A stretch of 5,349 bases of DNA. It comes from a virus. Position numbers and translations under genes: made by a program. Where the stretch lies: the IMG/VR virus record IMGVR_UViG_3300045988_055465, positions 1 through 5,349 of that record; one strand, written 5' to 3'. This document shows, piece by piece, positions 1 through 5,349 of the stretch (position 1 is the first letter of the stretch; each line of letters starts with the position of its first letter). Under the pieces are notes generated by a model. It was not told where the DNA came from. It saw nothing but the letters and a program-made list of their open reading frames with translations, and ran no database searches.

Positions 1-1117
1 AGACCAATACCAAGCGGCCTTAGCAGGAGCCAATCTTTTACCGGTAAACAAATACTTCGACTACTTCACAGGAGCTCTTCCTGAGCCTCAGAAGGGACCA
101 GAAGTGCTATTGCCTTTGGGCAATACGGCTCCGGTTATCACCATGACAACCGACATAACGGGAGTAACAGGCTCATCGCCAAGCCTAAGATTTGCATCAA
201 ACACCCCTATAAACAGCCAAGCAAACATAGTAATAACACCAACCGGAAGCGGAAAAGGAACACTGAATCATACCACAGCAAACGCAGATGCCCTCAACGG
301 CAACCTGATACCTGCAAACCTTTATGCAAATCTGGCGGAAGCAACCAGCGCAACCATCAACGAACTGCGGCTGGCATTCCAGCTGCAAAGACTGTATGAA
401 CGAGATGCTCGTGGCGGTACAAGATACATTGAGATTATAAAATCTCATTTCGGAGTAACATCTCCAGATGCCAGGCTTCAGAGGCCTGAATACCTGGGCG
501 GCGAACGTATCCCGATTAACATCGACCAGGTTATCCAGACATCTGGTACGATGGAAGGAACTACACCGCAGGGCAATACTGGTGCCTATTCCCTTACAGG
601 CAACCAGGGGAGCTATTTCAAGCACTCTTTCGTGGAACACGGGTACGTGCTGGGGCTGGCGTGTGTCCGAACCGAACACACATACCAGCAGGGACTGGAA
701 AAAATCTGGAACCGGAAAAATCGATTTGATTTCTATTGGCCGGCTCTGGCAAATATCGGAGAACAAGCCATCCTAAACAAAGAAATCTACCTGCAACCCA
801 TCAAAGAAGTCAACGAACAGGCCTTCGGCTATCAGGAAGCCTGGGCGGAATACCGGTATAAACCGAGCCGGGTAAGCTCGGCGTTCAGAAGCAACATCAC
901 TAGCGGCTCCCTAGACGCGTGGCACTACGCGGACTACTATGAGAAACTGCCGAAACTTTCGGCAGAATGGGTGCAGGAAACCTACAAGAACGTGGACAGG
1001 ACACTAGCTGTACAGTCTACCCTGGAAGACCAGTACATTGCGGACTTCTGGTTCAAGTGCAAATGTACTCGGCCGATGCCTATCTACAGTATCCCTGGAC
1101 TGATTGACCATCACTAA
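1..1117 (+). CDS. Major capsid protein VP1, C-terminal portion. The frame is open from base 2, and bases 1-99 repeat 5251-5349, so this is the continuation of the CDS starting at 4649 across the circular junction. The full protein is about 572 aa.
   Basis: The frame is open from the window edge with no stop before 1117 (TAA at 1115-1117). The translation upstream of 104 (DQYQAALAGANLLPVNKYFDYFTGALPEPQKGP) is identical to the tail of the ORF at the 3' end of the window. The size and N-terminal sequence (NRNSNSRF..FDRS..HKTTFNAG.L.P.YVDEVLPGDTF..K....IR..TP..PVMDN..LD.YFFYVPNRLVW) are typical of Microviridae F/VP1 jelly-roll capsid proteins. The ORF-track start at 104 is only a GTG within the open frame. 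Confidence 0.9.
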   Translation, partial: DQYQAALAGANLLPVNKYFDYFTGALPEPQKGPEVLLPLGNTAPVITMTTDITGVTGSSPSLRFASNTPINSQANIVITPTGSGKGTLNHTTANADALNGNLIPANLYANLAEATSATINELRLAFQLQRLYERDARGGTRYIEIIKSHFGVTSPDARLQRPEYLGGERIPINIDQVIQTSGTMEGTTPQGNTGAYSLTGNQGSYFKHSFVEHGYVLGLACVRTEHTYQQGLEKIWNRKNRFDFYWPALANIGEQAILNKEIYLQPIKEVNEQAFGYQEAWAEYRYKPSRVSSAFRSNITSGSLDAWHYADYYEKLPKLSAEWVQETYKNVDRTLAVQSTLEDQYIADFWFKCKCTRPMPIYSIPGLIDHH

Positions 1118-1131
1118 GGGGGAAACCAAGA

Positions 1132-1959
1132 ATGGGACTCCTAGACTTTTTCAAAGGGGCATTTGCTACAGGCGCAAATTATCCCTCAAAGGATAACTGG
1201 AATGTCCAATATGAGCAACAGATTGCTGACCGGGATTGGCAACGCAACCAGCAAGCAGCACAGCAGGCATTCCTAAATGAGATGACCAGCGCACAAATGG
1301 CCATGAATTGGGATGCCCAGCAAGCTGCACTCAATCGCCAATTCCAACAAAGCAGCGCACAACAGGCCATGCAGTTCAGCGCCAGCGAAGCGGCCCTGAA
1401 TCGCCAATGGCAGGAAGCCATGAATCAGAAGGCGATGAACTGGGATGCTCAGCAAGCTGAGATAAACCGTAACTGGCAGGCAGCTGAGGCGCAAGCAAAC
1501 AGAGAATTCCAAACTGCATCTGCACAACAAGCCATGCAGTGGGAAGCCCAGCAAGCTGAGCTCCAAAGGAAGTACCAAACTGAGATGTCCAATACAAGCT
1601 ATCAGAGGGCCGTAAATGACCTTAAAGCCGCTGGCCTTAATCCTATACTGGCAGCACTCAATCAAGGGGCTTCTACGCCCTCTGGGGCCATGGGAGGGGG
1701 CTTTGCGGCGTCGGGGTCTATGGGCGGAGGCGCTCAAGGGTCTGGATTTACTTCTTCTGGGTCAACCGGACAAGGTTTTTCGGCATCTGGTTCCCAGGGC
1801 CGCGGATACTCTGCAACAGGTAAACAAGCATCAAGTGCCAAAGGCATCGTCAAAGACGGACTTGGTCTCCTGGGAGACATCATCAAGCTGTCGATTCACG
1901 AGCAACACCAGTCGAAGACCGAGTTTGGGAAACTTCTCGCCGGCTTTATTGGCCGATGA
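1132..1959 (+). CDS. VP2-like DNA pilot / minor capsid protein, 275 aa. It has an N-terminal Gln/Ala-rich repeat (coiled-coil-like) region and a C-terminal Gly/Ser-rich low-complexity tail.
   Basis: A 275-aa ORF follows VP1 directly. An AAGGGGGA Shine-Dalgarno at about 1116-1124 sits 7-8 nt upstream of ATG 1132. Its position after VP1, the Q-rich heptad-like repeats (NWDAQQA, SAQQAMQ, ALNRQWQ) and the glycine-rich tail match the H/VP2 pilot proteins of microviruses. Confidence 0.75.
   Translation: MGLLDFFKGAFATGANYPSKDNWNVQYEQQIADRDWQRNQQAAQQAFLNEMTSAQMAMNWDAQQAALNRQFQQSSAQQAMQFSASEAALNRQWQEAMNQKAMNWDAQQAEINRNWQAAEAQANREFQTASAQQAMQWEAQQAELQRKYQTEMSNTSYQRAVNDLKAAGLNPILAALNQGASTPSGAMGGGFAASGSMGGGAQGSGFTSSGSTGQGFSASGSQGRGYSATGKQASSAKGIVKDGLGLLGDIIKLSIHEQHQSKTEFGKLLAGFIGR
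1303..1566 (+). repeat. Imperfect intragenic tandem duplication inside VP2 (units of about 132 nt; repeated motifs MNWDAQQA and SAQQAMQF/W).
   Basis: Bases 1303-1332 and 1435-1464 match at 24 of 30 positions. Bases 1357-1377 and 1522-1542 match at 18 of 21. At the protein level NWDAQQA(A/E)(L/I)NR(Q/N)(F/W)Q and SAQQAMQ(F/W) recur. Confidence 0.7.
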
Positions 1960-1974
1960 GACTGTAATTTCTGT

Positions 1975-2014
1975 CACTCAGCTCCATTACAACAAGCTAT
2001 AATGGAGCTGAGTG
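1975..2014. promoter_or_regulatory. Perfect 15-bp inverted repeat (stem 1975-1989 CACTCAGCTCCATTA / 2000-2014 TAATGGAGCTGAGTG, 10-nt loop CAACAAGCTA) between the VP2 stop and the VP4 start. It could be a regulatory or terminator hairpin, or an origin hairpin.
   Basis: The reverse complement of 2000-2014 equals 1975-1989 exactly. The 3' arm contains the first in-frame ATG of the Rep ORF (2002). The element lies 16 nt after the VP2 stop and ends 5 nt before the Rep Shine-Dalgarno. No U-tract follows it, so it is not a canonical intrinsic terminator. Confidence 0.7.
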
Positions 2015-2031
2015 CAAATGGAGGACCAAAA

Positions 2032-3048
2032 ATGCCATGCTATTCACCGATGATAGGATGGCGAAAGAAGGACGGTTCTGTGTATATATACGGGGACCTC
2101 CGGAACGAAAACTGGAAGACGGCGCCGGAATCACTTTTAAGTAAGGGGGTGAACCCCTACACGGATGAAAGAATCATCATACCGTGTGGCAAGTGCACCG
2201 GCTGCCGTCTCGAGTATTCGAAACAGTGGGCCGACAGATGTTACCTAGAAGCCAAAACATGGAAAGCAAACTACTGGCTTACTCTCACATACGACGAGGA
2301 ACACATCCAGCACCTCCTGGTCCCTGCAGTGGATAAAAAGACAGGCGAAGTCATCAAAGTGGCAAGCCTGTACAAAAAAGACCTGCAGGACTTTATGAAA
2401 CGTATCCGGGAACGATGGAAAAGAGTACACAATAATCCCAATGTGAGATTCTACGCGTGCGGAGAGTACGGGGAACAGAATCACCGACCTCACTTTCATG
2501 TCATCTTATTCAACTTTGTGATACCAGACCTAGAACTCATCGCAAACAAGAATGGATTTGCAGTATTCCAATCCGAGGAGGTCAGCAAAGTATGGGGTAT
2601 GGGAAACGTAACCATAAACCGAAATTCGTGGCTAACAGCTGCCTATACCGCGCGCTACATGATGAAAAAGCGCAAAGGAAAATGGGCAAAACAGGAGTAC
2701 GCAGAAGCCGGAATAAATCCGGAATTCTGCCTCTGCTCAAGAAAGCCTGGAATCGGATACGGATACTATGAAGCACACAAGGATGAAATATACAGCAAGG
2801 ACGGTATCGCATATGCAAAAGCGAAAGGGGGCGCACAGACCAGAAAACCACCAAAGTATTTCGACAAACTGTTTAAACTGGAAAATCCGGACAAATTTGC
2901 GGAGATACAGGCACTACGCAAAGAAGTGGCGGAACACCAATTTAAATACAGACTTGTTGGAAAAACAACATTACCGCGAATAGAATATTACAAAATTGAA
3001 GAAGAAGTTAAACAAAACACCATTAAAGCGCTAAGGCGGATATTGTGA
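2032..3048 (+). CDS. Replication initiation protein VP4 (rolling-circle Rep, phiX174 gene A family), 338 aa from ATG 2032. An alternative in-frame ATG at 2002 would give 348 aa.
   Basis: GGAGGA at 2020-2025 lies 6 nt upstream of ATG 2032, and the N-terminus MPCYSP resembles the usual Microviridae Rep N-terminus (as recalled). Rolling-circle motif 1 is WLTLTYD (nt 2275-2295). Motif 2 is HFHVILF (about 2491-2511). Motif 3 with paired catalytic tyrosines is YTARYMMKK (Y at 2644-2646 and 2656-2658), comparable to phiX A protein YVAKYVNK. Confidence 0.9.
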   Translation: MPCYSPMIGWRKKDGSVYIYGDLRNENWKTAPESLLSKGVNPYTDERIIIPCGKCTGCRLEYSKQWADRCYLEAKTWKANYWLTLTYDEEHIQHLLVPAVDKKTGEVIKVASLYKKDLQDFMKRIRERWKRVHNNPNVRFYACGEYGEQNHRPHFHVILFNFVIPDLELIANKNGFAVFQSEEVSKVWGMGNVTINRNSWLTAAYTARYMMKKRKGKWAKQEYAEAGINPEFCLCSRKPGIGYGYYEAHKDEIYSKDGIAYAKAKGGAQTRKPPKYFDKLFKLENPDKFAEIQALRKEVAEHQFKYRLVGKTTLPRIEYYKIEEEVKQNTIKALRRIL

Positions 3049-3056
3049 AGTGTGGG

Positions 3057-3085
3057 GAAGCCCCCGGAGAAATCCGGGGGCTTTG
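3057..3085 (+). terminator. GC-rich hairpin (stem 3057-3067 / 3072-3082, GAAA tetraloop) followed by TTTG. It looks like an intrinsic terminator or mRNA-stabilising hairpin just after the Rep stop.
   Basis: AAGCCCCCGGA gaaa TCCGGGGGCTT is an 11-bp perfect stem with 7 G:C pairs. It lies 9 nt after the VP4 stop TGA (3046-3048) and is followed by a short T-run (CTTTGTG). Confidence 0.55.
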
Positions 3086-3136
3086 TGCTGGCCGCGCCGG
3101 CACCCTAAAGGGGCCCCCGACGCTTTTATGGCCAGC
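3085..3136. other. Second GC-rich structured element: outer 8-bp stem TGCTGGCC (3085-3092) / GGCCAGCA (3129-3136) enclosing the palindromes GCCGGC (3095-3100) and GGGGCCCC (3109-3116), then TTTTAT.
   Basis: These are direct reverse-complement matches in the sequence. The local GC content is far above the genome average. Together with the hairpin at 3057-3082 it forms a roughly 90-nt structured block at the start of the only large intergenic region. Confidence 0.5.
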
Positions 3137-3145
3137 AGGCCAATA

Positions 3146-3267
3146 AGGAAAGGGGCAAACCTTTACGAAAAATCGAAAAATAGTTGAAAAAACATAAAAA
3201 AATAATTAATGCAAAAAATTAAAAAAATGATATAATTAAGATAAAGAAAAGAAAGGAGATAAAAACA
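3146..3267 (+). promoter_or_regulatory. A-rich intergenic tract (about 120 nt, strongly AT-rich) with a promoter-like extended -10 TGATATAAT (3228-3236), an upstream TTGAAA (3184-3189), phased A-tracts, and the Shine-Dalgarno AAGGAG (3253-3258) for the ORF at 3268.
   Basis: TGnTATAAT matches the sigma70 extended -10 consensus exactly. The TTGAAA hexamer is 41 nt upstream, too far to be its -35 partner. A5-7 tracts start at 3167, 3175, 3187, 3196, 3213 and 3221, spaced roughly 8-12 nt apart and suggestive of curved or UP-element-like DNA. This is the longest non-coding stretch in the genome and lies immediately upstream of the first small ORF. Confidence 0.5.
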
Positions 3268-3576
3268 ATGAAAAGCACGTACGTACTAATCGGCAGCATG
3301 ACTGCACACGAGGGAATCGGAAGGCTGGTCGAAAAATTCATGGCCAGACAGCCAGAAGTGGCTTTCAACCAAGAAGAAATGGAGGAGATAACAAGATGGT
3401 ACGGCGATGACGTACTAAAATGGGTAAGAACCTACAATAATGGAGAGACTGGCTGGTACGAAACAGTCTACGCATGGAAAACCAAAAACGGAGAAGTCAG
3501 ACACAACAAAAATCCAAAATACGCATTCAAAAAAATCATGGAGGAAAAATATGGAAATTTGGGATATGATGATTAA
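3268..3576 (+). CDS. Hypothetical protein, 102 aa. It is an accessory, non-core Microviridae gene. It is charged, Trp/Tyr-rich, has no transmembrane segment, and I recognise no motif in it.
   Basis: It has the best Shine-Dalgarno in the window (AAGGAG, 9-nt spacer, ATG 3268) directly downstream of the promoter-like region. The frame is clean, and the stop overlaps the next ORF start. Confidence 0.55.
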   Translation: MKSTYVLIGSMTAHEGIGRLVEKFMARQPEVAFNQEEMEEITRWYGDDVLKWVRTYNNGETGWYETVYAWKTKNGEVRHNKNPKYAFKKIMEEKYGNLGYDD

Positions 3577-3709
3577 CATCACCAGAGCAAAAGCTGATAA
3601 AGCATTCCGCGAACTGGACTATGAAGCATTTACAACACTCTGCAACCTAATGGAAGACTTTGAAAAAATCAAAATGGCATATGGGAAAGGAGACAAAACC
3701 AATGTTTAA
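3551..3709 (+). CDS. Hypothetical small acidic protein, 52 aa (MEIWDMMINITRAKADKAFRELDYEAFTTLCNLMEDFEKIKMAYGKGDKTNV).
   Basis: ATG 3551 is preceded by GGAGGA (3541-3546). It overlaps the end of the previous ORF by 26 nt in another frame, and its stop (3707-3709) overlaps the next ATG (3702). The longer ORF-track version from 3440 has no Shine-Dalgarno and sits inside the preceding gene, so the 3551 start is preferred. Confidence 0.4.
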   Translation: MEIWDMMINITRAKADKAFRELDYEAFTTLCNLMEDFEKIKMAYGKGDKTNV

Positions 3710-3875
3710 TCTGACCAATAAACAAGCGAAAGTCCTGGACGAACTTATCATGATGGAGAAGGCCACAGAAACCAAAAATGCGTGGATTTCCTTCCGTCTA
3801 CTTGCAAACGTCAGCGCGAAGGAATATGATAATATCAAGCAGGAAGGAGGTGATGACAATGGCATACAGACGTAA
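3702..3875 (+). CDS. Hypothetical small protein, 57 aa (MFNLTNKQAKVLDELIMMEKATETKNAWISFRLLANVSAKEYDNIKQEGGDDNGIQT). It has a weak LuxR/sigma region-4-like LTxxQxxVL pattern and an acidic tail.
   Basis: ATG 3702 is preceded by AAGGAG (3687-3692, 9-nt spacer). The ORF-track start at 3660 lacks a Shine-Dalgarno. The stop TAA (3873-3875) overlaps the VP8 start region, giving a chain of translational coupling. Confidence 0.4.
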   Translation: MFNLTNKQAKVLDELIMMEKATETKNAWISFRLLANVSAKEYDNIKQEGGDDNGIQT

Positions 3876-3975
3876 GGCAAGGCGAGGGGACCACAGAATG
3901 TTCATGCGCACCGCAGGGACCACGAAGCAAATCAACATCACGCCTAAAATCATGCGAGGAGGCATCAGACTTTGA
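3859..3975 (+). CDS. Small Arg-rich DNA-binding/packaging protein, 38 aa: MAYRRKARRGDHRMFMRTAGTTKQINITPKIMRGGIRL. It resembles gokushovirus ORF8/VP8 and is a functional analogue of phiX174 protein J.
   Basis: AAGGAGG (3844-3850) lies 8 nt upstream of ATG 3859. The peptide is 38 aa with 9 Arg and 3 Lys, an N-terminal RRKARRG cluster and a C-terminal RGGIRL. This composition and size match the small basic DNA-condensing proteins of Microviridae (as recalled). Confidence 0.65.
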   Translation: MAYRRKARRGDHRMFMRTAGTTKQINITPKIMRGGIRL

Positions 3976-4259
3976 AAGGCTATCTGTACAGCATCTACGA
4001 CACCAAACTGAAGCAGGTACTGATGATGTCAATTCATCAGCACGACAAGGACGCAAGAGAAAACTTCCAGAAGGCAACGAAAGAATTCGACGCCAGAGCG
4101 CTGGTCCTCTGCCGGATGGCGGACATCGACACCGAGGAAAACGAACTCACAATATCAAAACAGGAGGTAATAGCACGTGGGAAAAACAACCTCAAACGCG
4201 CCAAGATTCTACAGCCGGCTGAATCTGCCGGAACGGAAACCGTCTCCAGCGGGAAGTGA
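3972..4259 (+). CDS. Hypothetical protein, 95 aa, probably TTG-initiated at 3972 (first ATG at 4023). It may be the VP5/non-structural counterpart. Its last 83 nt overlap the putative VP3 start in a different frame.
   Basis: GAGGAGG (3956-3962) lies 9 nt upstream of TTG 3972, which overlaps the VP8 stop (TGA 3973-3975) as expected for coupling. ATG 4023 has no obvious Shine-Dalgarno. The function cannot be assigned from the sequence. Confidence 0.4.
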   Translation: MKGYLYSIYDTKLKQVLMMSIHQHDKDARENFQKATKEFDARALVLCRMADIDTEENELTISKQEVIARGKNNLKRAKILQPAESAGTETVSSGK

Positions 4260-4665
4260 ATGGGCTGAAAAATGCGTCATTGACGTGGACGCCGAAACCG
4301 GGGCGAAAGTTTTAAAAGTGGTCGGACGAGAAAACATCTACGAGAAAATCCAGGAGTGCCTCGAACCGACAAAAATCGAGAATATCATCCGTCGATTTGA
4401 AGAAGGGGACCCGACGGCACTGGGACACGAAGACGGCATCTATGCCGACATCAGCGATATGCCGACAAACATCATCGAGGCGCAGAAGCGCATCCAGGAT
4501 GTAAAGGCAAAATTCGCGTCGCTGCCTATCGACATCAAAGAAAAATTCGGAAACGACCCGACGGTCTTCATGGCCGAAATCCTTTCAGGGGAAGGATTGC
4601 AGAAACTGAAAAAGGAACCTGAAACCGCGATACAGGAGGAAATCAAGGATGAACAGAAACAGTAA
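4177..4665 (+). CDS. Putative internal scaffolding protein VP3, 162 aa, GTG start. It is acidic and has a C-terminal F-G-N-D-P-T-V-F motif region.
   Basis: AGGAGG (4161-4166) lies 10 nt upstream of GTG 4177. The frame runs 162 codons to TAA 4663-4665, overlapping the VP1 ATG (4649) by 17 nt. A size of about 150-190 aa, acidity, a position immediately upstream of the capsid gene and an (F)xNDPxxF-type C-terminal segment are what I recall for gokushovirus VP3. The assignment is tentative. Confidence 0.5.
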   Translation: MGKTTSNAPRFYSRLNLPERKPSPAGSEWAEKCVIDVDAETGAKVLKVVGRENIYEKIQECLEPTKIENIIRRFEEGDPTALGHEDGIYADISDMPTNIIEAQKRIQDVKAKFASLPIDIKEKFGNDPTVFMAEILSGEGLQKLKKEPETAIQEEIKDEQKQ

Positions 4666-5349
4666 CAGCCGTTTCGCACAGGCTCCACAGGTAGATATAC
4701 AGCGGTCCACCTTTGACCGCTCCAGTGGGCACAAAACGACGTTCAACGCGGGCAAATTAGTGCCCATCTATGTGGACGAGGTTTTACCTGGGGATACATT
4801 CGAAATGAAAACGTCGGCCATTATACGGGGAAGTACGCCTATCTATCCGGTCATGGACAACGCCAACCTGGATATCTATTTCTTCTACGTACCAAACCGT
4901 CTAGTCTGGGACCACTGGAAGGAATTCAACGGCGAAAACACAACCAGCAAATGGGAACAGACTGTAGAATACAGCATCCCGCAGATGGCTCCTCCACCGA
5001 GCAACAATACAAAAGCAGCGGGCTGGGAAAAAGGAACCCTGGCGGACTATATGGGCATTCCTACCCTGGTAGGGCCTGGCGCTTCACAGACCAATCCACA
5101 ATACAGTGTCAACCATCTTCCTTTCCGTGCTTACTGCTTGATATGGAATGAATGGTTTCGAGACCAGAACCTACAAGACCCGGTTTACATCGACACCAGT
5201 GACTCACAGACCAACGGCCAACATCTTCAACCCGAAGAAAGTCTTATATCAGACCAATACCAAGCGGCCTTAGCAGGAGCCAATCTTTTACCGGTAAACA
5301 AATACTTCGACTACTTCACAGGAGCTCTTCCTGAGCCTCAGAAGGGACC
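4649..5349 (+). CDS. Major capsid protein VP1, N-terminal portion. It continues past the window end and re-enters at base 1.
   Basis: AGGAGG (4634-4639) lies 9 nt upstream of ATG 4649. The N-terminus MNRNSNSRFAQAPQVDIQRSTFDRSSGHKTTFNAGKLVPIYVDEVLPGDTFEMKTSAIIRGSTPIYPVMDNANLDIYFFYVPNRLVWDHW is a highly characteristic Microviridae VP1/F N-terminus. There is no stop through 5349. Confidence 0.9.
   Translation, partial: MNRNSNSRFAQAPQVDIQRSTFDRSSGHKTTFNAGKLVPIYVDEVLPGDTFEMKTSAIIRGSTPIYPVMDNANLDIYFFYVPNRLVWDHWKEFNGENTTSKWEQTVEYSIPQMAPPPSNNTKAAGWEKGTLADYMGIPTLVGPGASQTNPQYSVNHLPFRAYCLIWNEWFRDQNLQDPVYIDTSDSQTNGQHLQPEESLISDQYQAALAGANLLPVNKYFDYFTGALPEPQKG
5251..5349. repeat. Terminal redundancy: 5251-5349 is identical (99 of 99) to 1-99. 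This is a circular-genome wrap-around or assembly artefact and defines a 5250-nt unit genome.
   Basis: Base-by-base comparison of the two ends shows they are identical. Base 100 (a) follows in the first copy, and the second copy is cut by the window end. Confidence 0.95.

Follow-up and report, generated by a model that had tools for sequence, protein, structure and literature searches.

A putative terminator-promoter seam with a candidate single-strand origin in the gap downstream of VP4 in a gokushovirus genome

The filamentous phages M13, f1 and fd (the Ff phages), small and with single-stranded DNA (ssDNA), carry one large non-coding region, at the head of which stands the preceding gene's terminator, followed by hairpins serving as the complementary-strand origin. 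The viral-strand origin and the packaging signal lie in the same region, and priming by RNA polymerase at its promoter-like hairpins has been experimentally demonstrated. Here we analyse a region of comparable layout in a gokushovirus, a representative of some of the commonest gut and environmental phages: the 219-nt gap (positions 3049-3267) that follows VP4, the replication initiator gene, in the IMG/VR virus record IMGVR_UViG_3300045988_055465. The stretch under study (positions 1 to 5,349 of that record, hereafter the window) represents one whole circular genome, 5250 nt in length, bases 1-99 being identical to 5251-5349, and all its credible genes lie on the plus strand. As in the Ff phages, a putative terminator comes first in the gap and is followed by hairpins that are, in this case, a candidate complementary-strand origin. 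The two regions differ in that no sequence similarity links them and the candidate viral-strand origin of the window is 1.1 kb away.

Stable intergenic hairpins are also a feature of the microviruses phiX174, with its primosome assembly site upstream of gene G, and G4, with its primase-recognised hairpins; a recruitment of host priming enzymes is proposed for them, the case of phiX174 being summarised in PMC9865509. Those origins work in enterobacteria, the coding (virion) strand being their template, whereas the window belongs to a phage of a probable Firmicute and its element perhaps works on the non-coding strand; no homology between them was found. The ssoA/palA origins of pT181, pC194 and pMV158 resemble the present element in being structured and non-coding, in serving replicons with an HUH-type Rep in a Firmicute host, and in lying away from the double-strand origin, itself upstream of rep (PMC5703833), although ssoA measures about 160 nt and the block described below about 55-75 nt. 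The complementary-strand origin of a rolling-circle replicon is defined as a non-coding region with structure and orientation specificity (PMC4595007, PMC5703833); in the active orientation it stimulates second-strand synthesis or lowers the accumulation of ssDNA (PMC4595007). The same inference, from structure to complementary-strand origin, has been made for other microviruses (PMC9865509). The intergenic hairpins predicted bioinformatically in reekeekee- and roodoodooviruses are conserved in nucleotide sequence, show compensatory substitutions and were considered for a possible negative-strand initiation, a role that in their authors' words cannot be certified (PMC9865509). They belong to other subfamilies, lie between the capsid and Rep genes and share no sequence with the window, whose own compensated hairpin is better explained as a terminator and whose origin candidate is an invariant block. 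The literature searched, which leaves out a few older studies, yielded no published mapping of a gokushovirus promoter, terminator or replication origin, and nothing usable on the SpV4 promoter or terminator or on strand skew in Microviridae.

We consider it reasonably probable that the gap forms a seam at which transcription of the circular genome ends and restarts, and that an element acting as DNA sits within it. The hairpin at 3058-3083 and its tail UUUGUGCU would end the polycistronic mRNA just after VP4, and the element TGATATAAT, aided by an A-rich upstream region, would start transcription again near 3243, through the accessory open reading frames (ORFs), VP8, VP3, VP1 and VP2 to VP4, most simply as one operon. 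These two steps rest on comparative sequence evidence, while the third we infer: the segment 3086-3137, whose 3' flank is conserved as far as about 3160, probably stays outside the main transcript, given its position between terminator and promoter, and would most likely be recognised as folded ssDNA, on which a PriA-type primosome, primase or RNA polymerase would prime the complementary strand after infection. The gap probably does not contain the viral-strand origin, the one nicked by Rep, for which a hairpin at 1975-2015 is the likelier place.

Putative terminator and promoter in a conserved gap

The gap is the window's largest stretch without a credible gene, in agreement with the initial annotation of this DNA, which had put it at about 220 nt and described it as GC-rich and then A-rich; the GC content is 66% at 3050-3149 and 19% at 3150-3249. 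A 45-codon GTG ORF (3050-3187) was ruled out as a gene by single-base indels in relatives. The close relatives, at 89-92% identity, are Dulem viruses 182-184 (lemur), Gokushovirus WZ-2015a (fox) and a Microviridae record from pig faeces, and the clade also includes several IMG/VR and metagenome contigs. Measured against 15 relatives, divergence is 2.0% in the gap core (3084-3240), 5.6% in VP2, 6.7% in VP4, 11-13% in VP1 and 13% in the small ORFs; in the immediate flanks it amounts to 12-22% over the last 200 nt of VP4 and 24-32% in the first downstream ORF. The last 200 nt of VP4 occur as two or three divergent haplotypes. In otherwise near-identical genomes (L006, L008, L009 and L010), the first ORF after the gap (3268-3576 in the window) is swapped for unrelated ORFs. 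The gap sits between recombining cassettes, and the combination of a conserved gap, a variable VP4 end and a swapped first ORF marks it as a strongly constrained module, or a recombination-homogenised one, between two variable segments.

An inverted-repeat search located hairpin 1 (3058-3083, plus strand) 10 nt 3' of the VP4 stop codon. It consists of a perfect, GC-rich 11-bp stem (3058-3068/3073-3083; AAGCCCCCGGA / TCCGGGGGCTT) with a GAAA loop, and corresponds, with a shift of 1 nt, to the 11-bp GC hairpin noted initially. Its RNA folding energy is -20.3 to -22.8 kcal/mol, the first value being that of the 22-nt core. It runs into a U-rich tail (TTTGTGCT, 3082-3091, plus strand), in which UUUGUGCU has a tail score of 2.96. 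Hairpin and tail together reach a d'Aubenton-Carafa-type d score of +26.

Stem variation was analysed on 18 distinct clade sequences. Both sides of the pairs 3065/3076 and 3068/3073 are altered in 6-7 of them, and in 7 of the 18 the sequence AAGCCCCCGGA-GAAA-TCCGGGGGCTT is replaced by AAGCCCCTGGGA-GAAA-TCCCAGGGGCTT, which turns a C-G pair into T-A and adds one pair. In KT264794 the stem is kept through G.T wobbles, a pairing that holds on the plus strand only. Within the gap, hairpin 1 alone varies in sequence while keeping its pairing, and such compensated changes, together with wobbles restricted to the plus strand, are the signature of an RNA structure. Moreover, two relatives at 59-68% VP4 identity (L039 and L041) carry, exactly at the VP4 stop, hairpins followed by clean T-runs (TATTCTTTTAT and CATTTCTTTTTG, respectively); these are canonical terminator hairpins, but unrelated in sequence to hairpin 1. 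The proposal that the hairpin block ends the transcript is well supported by these comparisons as far as hairpin 1 and its UUUGUGCU tail are concerned, which together look like an intrinsic terminator with an mRNA 3' end predicted near 3085-3090. The heptamer GCCCCCG is present at 3060-3066 and again at 3113-3119, and either copy is able to pair with CGGGGGC (3075-3081), which gives the terminator's 3' arm a second possible partner further downstream.

Towards the other end of the gap, a motif scan and the clade alignment revealed an extended -10 element, TGaTATAAT (TGATATAAT, 3228-3236, plus strand). It is the only TGNTATAAT of the genome on either strand, with 0.13 expected by chance, and is invariant in 18/18 clade sequences despite indels on its upstream side. 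It stands 32 nt 5' of an ATG, with an AAAGGAG Shine-Dalgarno site in between (3252-3270 for the site and the ATG, at 3268, of the first small ORF; plus strand). The indels, found 5' of the element in KT264794 and L008, imply that there is no fixed -35 spacing, as expected for an extended -10 promoter, a class in which a -35 hexamer is not required. The best -35 hexamer at 16-18 nt was ATGCAA, with 3/6 matches at 16 nt, and the promoter scan listed no pair. TTGAAA (3184-3189), included in the promoter by the initial annotation, was rejected as a -35, since it is 41 nt from the -10 and, in the Dulem viruses, is mutated to TTAAAA. In the corresponding position, L039 carries a perfect 12/12 TTGACA-17-TGgTATAAT, which is the only strong promoter in its genome, L040 has TTGACT-17-TACTAT, and L043 has TGcTAAAAT 22 nt before the ATG. 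From its uniqueness, invariance, placement and the consensus promoters of relatives, the identification of TGATATAAT as an extended -10 promoter for the host's housekeeping sigma factor is well supported, and transcription is predicted to start near 3243. Nothing supports the label 'early' that had been attached to it. The same holds for a division into two transcripts, one for VP1-VP2-VP4 and one for the small ORFs, VP8, VP3 and VP1: as there is a single strong promoter and a single strong terminator, transcription would most simply yield one operon as long as the genome, running from about 3243 all the way round to about 3085.

Upstream of the -10 is an A-tract-rich, UP-element-like region (3167-3227, plus strand). 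Its six A5-7 tracts, spaced 8-11.5 nt apart with one additional gap of 16.5, are those described at the outset as phased; the tracts are real, but their periodicity near 10 nt is not significant, as 114/2000 shuffles do as well. At 3166-3186 (plus strand) the A-rich tract holds the 13-mer CGAAAAATAGTTG, preceded by the partial copy CGAAAAAT. In the gap of L041, a relative with 59% VP4 identity, CGAAAAATAGTTG is found twice, 22 nt apart, at 2008-2020 and 2030-2042. The 13-mer resembles an iteron or operator and may be a protein-binding repeat.

The GC-rich block between terminator and promoter

The GC block (3084-3160) is located between the terminator and the promoter, and contains an invariant GC-rich nested inverted repeat (3086-3137, strand unassigned), which is the candidate single-strand (complementary-strand) origin. 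Its outer 8-bp stem is formed by 3086-3093/3130-3137 and its inner 7-bp stem by 3094-3100/3117-3123, where a C.A mismatch on the plus strand becomes a G.T wobble on the minus strand. Of the nested structure proposed initially, the outer stem stands, with a 1-nt shift, and for minus-strand ssDNA the nested fold has the lowest energy and is also the centroid; it is not, however, the minimum-energy fold of the plus strand, on which local hairpins at 3085-3103 and 3129-3142 win over it. The first of these, hairpin 2 (GTGCTGGC CGC GCCGGCAC, 3085-3103, plus strand, one T.G wobble), belongs to the minimum-energy fold of plus-strand DNA and RNA and excludes the nested fold; it is invariant, so comparison cannot test its pairing. 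The second, hairpin 3 (TGGCC AGCA GGCCA, 3129-3142, plus strand), is present in the predicted plus-strand DNA and RNA folds. G3139A, in Dulem 183/184, is the only stem substitution seen and breaks hairpin 3 without compensation, and the homologous stretch of L039 (TTATGCCAATAAAGG) lacks this hairpin.

Among the 18 sequences, the variable positions within 3084-3142 are 3108, 3109, 3112, 3113, 3126 and 3139, all outside the nested stems. Covariation, which had been proposed as a check of the stems, is found in hairpin 1 and not in the GC block, and the GGGGCCCC palindrome, which had been placed within the nested structure, is not conserved. On the 3' side, a purine-rich stretch (GCCAATAAGGAAAGGGGCAAAC, 3139-3160, plus strand) is conserved, as shown by k-mers common to L039 and L041, and relatives have G-run-rich stretches at its position. 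A long-range stem (3020-3030/3121-3131) was rejected, because relatives have G3030A without compensation.

The folding prediction that had been suggested for the hairpin region was made on 3040-3160, which folds more strongly than dinucleotide shuffles as plus-strand DNA (z -3.5), RNA (-60.9 kcal/mol, z -3.45) and minus-strand DNA (z -4.4). The block is both non-coding and stably structured, as single-strand origins in general are in the displaced or packaged strand. In relatives at 58-68% VP4 identity, the gaps after VP4 are 340-600 nt long and full of long perfect hairpins of unrelated sequence, and their structured blocks (z from -4.2 to -9.5) are non-homologous to that of the window; this points to a structured block at the post-VP4 position as a trait of the lineage. 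Invariant, structured, placed in a presumably untranscribed gap and matched by structured blocks in the same place in relatives, the GC block is plausible as a complementary-strand origin; this is the best functional guess, to which we give rather less than an even chance.

An ssoA/palA-type origin was rejected. The ssoA type is defined by an RSB motif, TTATGCCGAGAAAATTT, and a CS-6 motif, TAGCGT/A, in the loop (PMC4598088). The best match to the RSB motif in the gap has 8/17 mismatches, CS-6 (TAGCG[TA]) is absent from the gaps of the window and L039-L043, and a local alignment of the gap to pC194 palA scores below the shuffle mean. The 12-mer CCAATAAGGAAA, common to the gap (in the 3139-3160 stretch) and pT181 palA, is not significant, being equalled in 48/1000 shuffles. 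When viral contigs were scanned for exact matches to two pieces of the GC block, only the block's own clade and chance matches in large GC-rich contigs came up, and blastn of the gap against a plasmid collection gave no match. A permissive Rfam 15 scan of the whole window yielded nothing at family threshold and sub-threshold chance matches with E of at least 1.2, and a tRNA/tmRNA search found none. The initial annotation had called the block the obvious candidate for the origin converting ssDNA to the replicative form. So strong a wording is not upheld: a far more widely conserved origin-type hairpin lies at 1975-2015, the ssoA tests failed, and it is doubtful for this lineage that the coding strand is the packaged one.

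Several observations speak against the seam with a lodged origin as set out here. The U-tract of the terminator is interrupted, with 5 U in 8, and a simple terminator scan did not list hairpin 1, a miss that probably arises from the extension of its stem into the first two T's of the tail. TGATATAAT has no recognisable -35. The GC block, being invariant, offers no covariation, and conservation at the sequence level fits a protein-binding site equally; it has two mutually exclusive folds and no similarity to ssoA/palA, Rfam families or plasmids. Its low divergence may partly reflect recombination, as swapped or mosaic segments flank it. Finally, the second strong hairpin, at 1975-2015, could instead be the complementary-strand origin.

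Two other roles for the block were weighed on the same data. It could act at the RNA level, as a back-up or insulating structure behind the terminator that blocks read-through or shields the mRNA 3' end from exonucleases, with no part in replication. The block does lie directly 3' of the terminator, its plus-strand RNA folds well, at the energy given above, and the T.G (U.G) wobble of hairpin 2 pairs on the plus strand only. Yet hairpins 2 and 3 are followed by no U-tract, the nested fold has its wobble on the minus strand, and the only stem substitution breaks hairpin 3; moreover, an RNA structure should show compensated changes, as hairpin 1 does, while the block is sequence-invariant. An RNA-level role is on this evidence unlikely. 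Alternatively, the block, the CGAAAAATAGTTG repeats or both could be duplex protein-binding sites, for a host or phage transcription regulator of the neighbouring promoter or as an accessory locus for Rep (VP4) remote from the nick site, in the manner of pMV158; the constraint on sequence and not on structure would fit this. Palindromes are typical of operators, the 13-mer recurs twice in L041, and the bind locus of the pMV158 Rep is 84 bp from the nick site (PMC5703833). The GC block, however, is about 1.1 kb from the 1975-2015 hairpin, and no candidate regulator was identified in the window, where a locally encoded partner is in any case unlikely, given that the adjacent accessory ORFs are swapped beside near-identical blocks. 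We regard such sites as an improbable explanation; with the RNA-level role, they are the main rivals of the complementary-strand origin.

The VP2-VP4 hairpin and strand polarity

An origin-like hairpin occupies the intergenic space between VP2 and VP4 (1975-2015), with a perfect 15-bp stem (1975-1989/2001-2015) and the loop CAACAAGCTA. Its orientation is inverted (R), the CTTGTTG of the loop lying on the minus strand. Counterparts are found in L039 (2686-2729), L040 (2494-2530), L041 (753-797) and L043 (about 616-660). In the relatives at 58-68% VP4 identity, the stem is heavily altered and still perfectly paired, and neither the loop TTACAACAAGTA nor the GTCAC/GTGAC at the base of the stem has changed; the loop sequence TTACAACAAG... 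is conserved between the window's hairpin and these relatives. The longest VP4 ORF starts with an ATG at 2002, within the 3' arm of this hairpin. The VP4 start annotated in relatives is the equivalent of 2032 (338 aa), 3' of a GGAGG site, and the start at 2002 is probably not used.

We then scanned 98 gokushovirus genomes, oriented by VP4, for loop orientation. The origin-like hairpin family is present in about 70 of the 98, with the loop CTTGAT or its reverse complement. In the 'F' type (about 53/98), a loop ending in CTTGAT or a close variant is on the coding strand, typically as ...GTTAC-ctcttgat-GTAAC..., and of 79 genomes about 40 contain CTTGATGTAA as an exact 10-mer; the isolate Chp2 is of this type. 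In the 'R' type (19/98, including the window), the reverse complement is on the coding strand; for this set L043 and L246 were assigned by eye, and one scripted assignment (L242) was overruled.

CTTGAT matches the viral-strand-synthesis origin of phiX174, annotated at 4306 within CAACTTGATATT, and a checked sequence of pC194, TCTTATCTTGATAATAAGG, which we take to be its nick site. The loops of the 1975-2015 family, with CTTGAT or CTTGTT, thus resemble the nick sites of both replicons (between CAACTTG and ATATTAATAAC in phiX174, and TCTTATCTTGATAATAAGG in pC194); the annotated phiX174 origin falls within CTTGATA, and pC194 has CTTATCTTGATAATAAGG. The phiX174 origin differs in having no hairpin and lying inside gene A, whereas the motif of the window is on the strand opposite the genes. 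The hairpin's location upstream of VP4 agrees with that of double-strand origins, which are often upstream of rep (PMC5703833). Taken together, the 1975-2015 hairpin family is probably the best candidate for the Rep-nicked origin. A scan of viral contigs with the loop motif CCTTTCTTGWTGTAAT gave mostly chance matches in AT-rich phages, with 2 microviruses among the 120 stretches fetched, and a search for any 14-mer common to the window and 12 relatives (at most 3 mismatches) was uninformative in these AT-rich genomes.

The same hairpin family bears on whether TGATATAAT and its surroundings could be the Rep nick site (the viral-strand origin), instead of or besides a promoter, which is very unlikely: the element matches 10/14 positions of the phiX174 origin core TTGATATTAATAAC, but such a match is expected from an AT-rich -10; TGATAT is found in the post-VP4 gaps of the window, L039, L040 and L041, but genome-wide at about chance frequency; and the CTTGAT-loop hairpins, shared so widely and present in the window at 1975-2015, are far better candidates.

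Loop orientation is associated with the composition of silent sites. At four-fold degenerate sites, 19/19 R-type genomes have more A than T on the coding strand (AT skew +0.25 to +0.77), while F-type genomes mostly have more T than A (-0.13 to -0.79), the direction also seen in phiX174 (-0.64) and Chp2 (-0.37). On a rough neighbour-joining VP4 tree the R state arises about 7 times, each time beside T-rich F-type relatives; for instance, L278 (+0.77) stands beside L273 (-0.68), and L205 (+0.65) beside L046 and L047 (about -0.35). The exceptions are a clade of five genomes (L272, L277, L252, L259 and L264) and L229, which are F type with a moderate excess of A over T. G/C skew does not cleanly mirror loop orientation, and hairpin counts did not differ between inverted-origin and standard genomes.

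Read straightforwardly, these data mean that the strand to be displaced and packaged is set by the orientation of the loop. In that case, in the virus of the window and in at least about 7 independent lineages with an inverted origin, Rep would nick, displace and package the strand antisense to the mRNAs, making them 'negative-sense' microviruses; we put this at somewhat short of an even chance, on the strength of the nick-motif analogy, a distance tree and composition. Were it true, the complementary-strand origin at 3086-3137 would have to act on the minus strand, and the hairpins of the gap would have to be read on that strand, where the nested fold is favoured and its one non-Watson-Crick pair is a G.T wobble.

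The post-VP4 gap in temperate relatives and its wider meaning

The plus-strand genes of the window are VP1 (major capsid; 4649 across the junction to 1117), VP2 (1132-1959), VP4 (replication initiator of HUH type, PF23343; 2032-3048), three small ORFs (3268-3576, 3551-3709 and 3702-3875), a VP8-like basic peptide (3858-3975), a further ORF (3972-4259) and VP3 (4177-4665). Lachnospiraceae, Peptostreptococcaceae, Oscillospiraceae and further Clostridia carry the nearest prophage relatives, with 51-60% VP1 identity, in their genomes. A Clostridium-like Firmicute from among the Clostridia is the probable host of the window's virus; the strong Shine-Dalgarno sites and sigma-A-type promoter of the window are consistent with these prophage relatives.

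In these temperate relatives the gap after VP4 is put to other uses. Direct repeats bounding the prophages L046 (5466-5490 and 10473-10506), L047 (5506-5538 and 10625-10657) and L056 (3640-3667 and 9313-9340) are situated 245-300 nt after VP4, so that 3/4 of the prophages, the fourth being L048 (repeats at 4587-4618 and 9644-9675), have their attachment site in this gap. The repeats are palindromes of the form arm-spacer-arm, unlike canonical dif, as in ATCTCTTCGCAAAA-CCTGTC-TTTTGCGAAGAGAT. The gaps of these temperate relatives are AT-rich, with a terminator and a consensus promoter, and are devoid of a GC block. In L046 (about 10270-10415) and L047 (about 10480-10615), a small gene for a ribbon-helix-helix-like protein (e.g. 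MAKTLFAVRFEQETLRDIEIIAKQKKRKKSDLIRIIVENYVEQHKM; fold assigned by eye) stands in the post-VP4 gap between the consensus promoter and the attachment site; its product may be a repressor. A Clostridia contig of 36 kb (L049) holds, at 7001-15597, two head-to-tail gokushovirus genome copies with a period of 5173 nt, which represent either prophages in tandem or replicative concatemers joined in the assembly.

It follows the example of these prophages, whose bounding palindromes in L046, L047 and L056 fall in the post-VP4 gap, and the usually non-coding location of gokushovirus dif-like sites (PMC7062461), to suppose that the gap of the window holds an attachment site for host recombinases (XerCD/dif-like). 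This is highly improbable, as the matches to 28-bp 11-6-11 dif or prophage att cores have at least 13/28 mismatches, no better than shuffles, the terminator hairpin is the one palindrome of arm-spacer-arm form in the window, a search of 185,579 species genomes turned up no prophage above 60% VP1 identity, the temperate gaps differ in being AT-rich with the ribbon-helix-helix-like gene and no GC block, and the clade's one long contig is a head-to-tail concatemer and not a prophage. That contig (L058, 1-9792) is a 9.8-kb metagenome contig of nearly two genome lengths of the clade, head to tail, with two VP1 copies of different length (577 vs 571 aa), and represents either a concatemer or two strains assembled into a chimera. 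The post-VP4 gap is a general site for accessory functions, but no indication of lysogeny was seen in the clade of the window.

For one lineage, the putative seam provides testable coordinates: a terminator at about 3085, a transcription start at about 3243 and a 52-nt invariant candidate single-strand origin. Across relatives, the gap after VP4 emerges as a conserved 'service bay', used for terminators and promoters, for blocks of hairpins, for attachment sites and for small genes resembling regulators. The by-product outside the gap, that is, the relation of loop orientation to strand skew, is more unusual and matters more. As loop orientation tracks the strand bias of silent sites, the packaged strand of a microvirus might be predicted from its sequence only, and the result suggests that the textbook 'positive-sense' label may fail for some microviruses.

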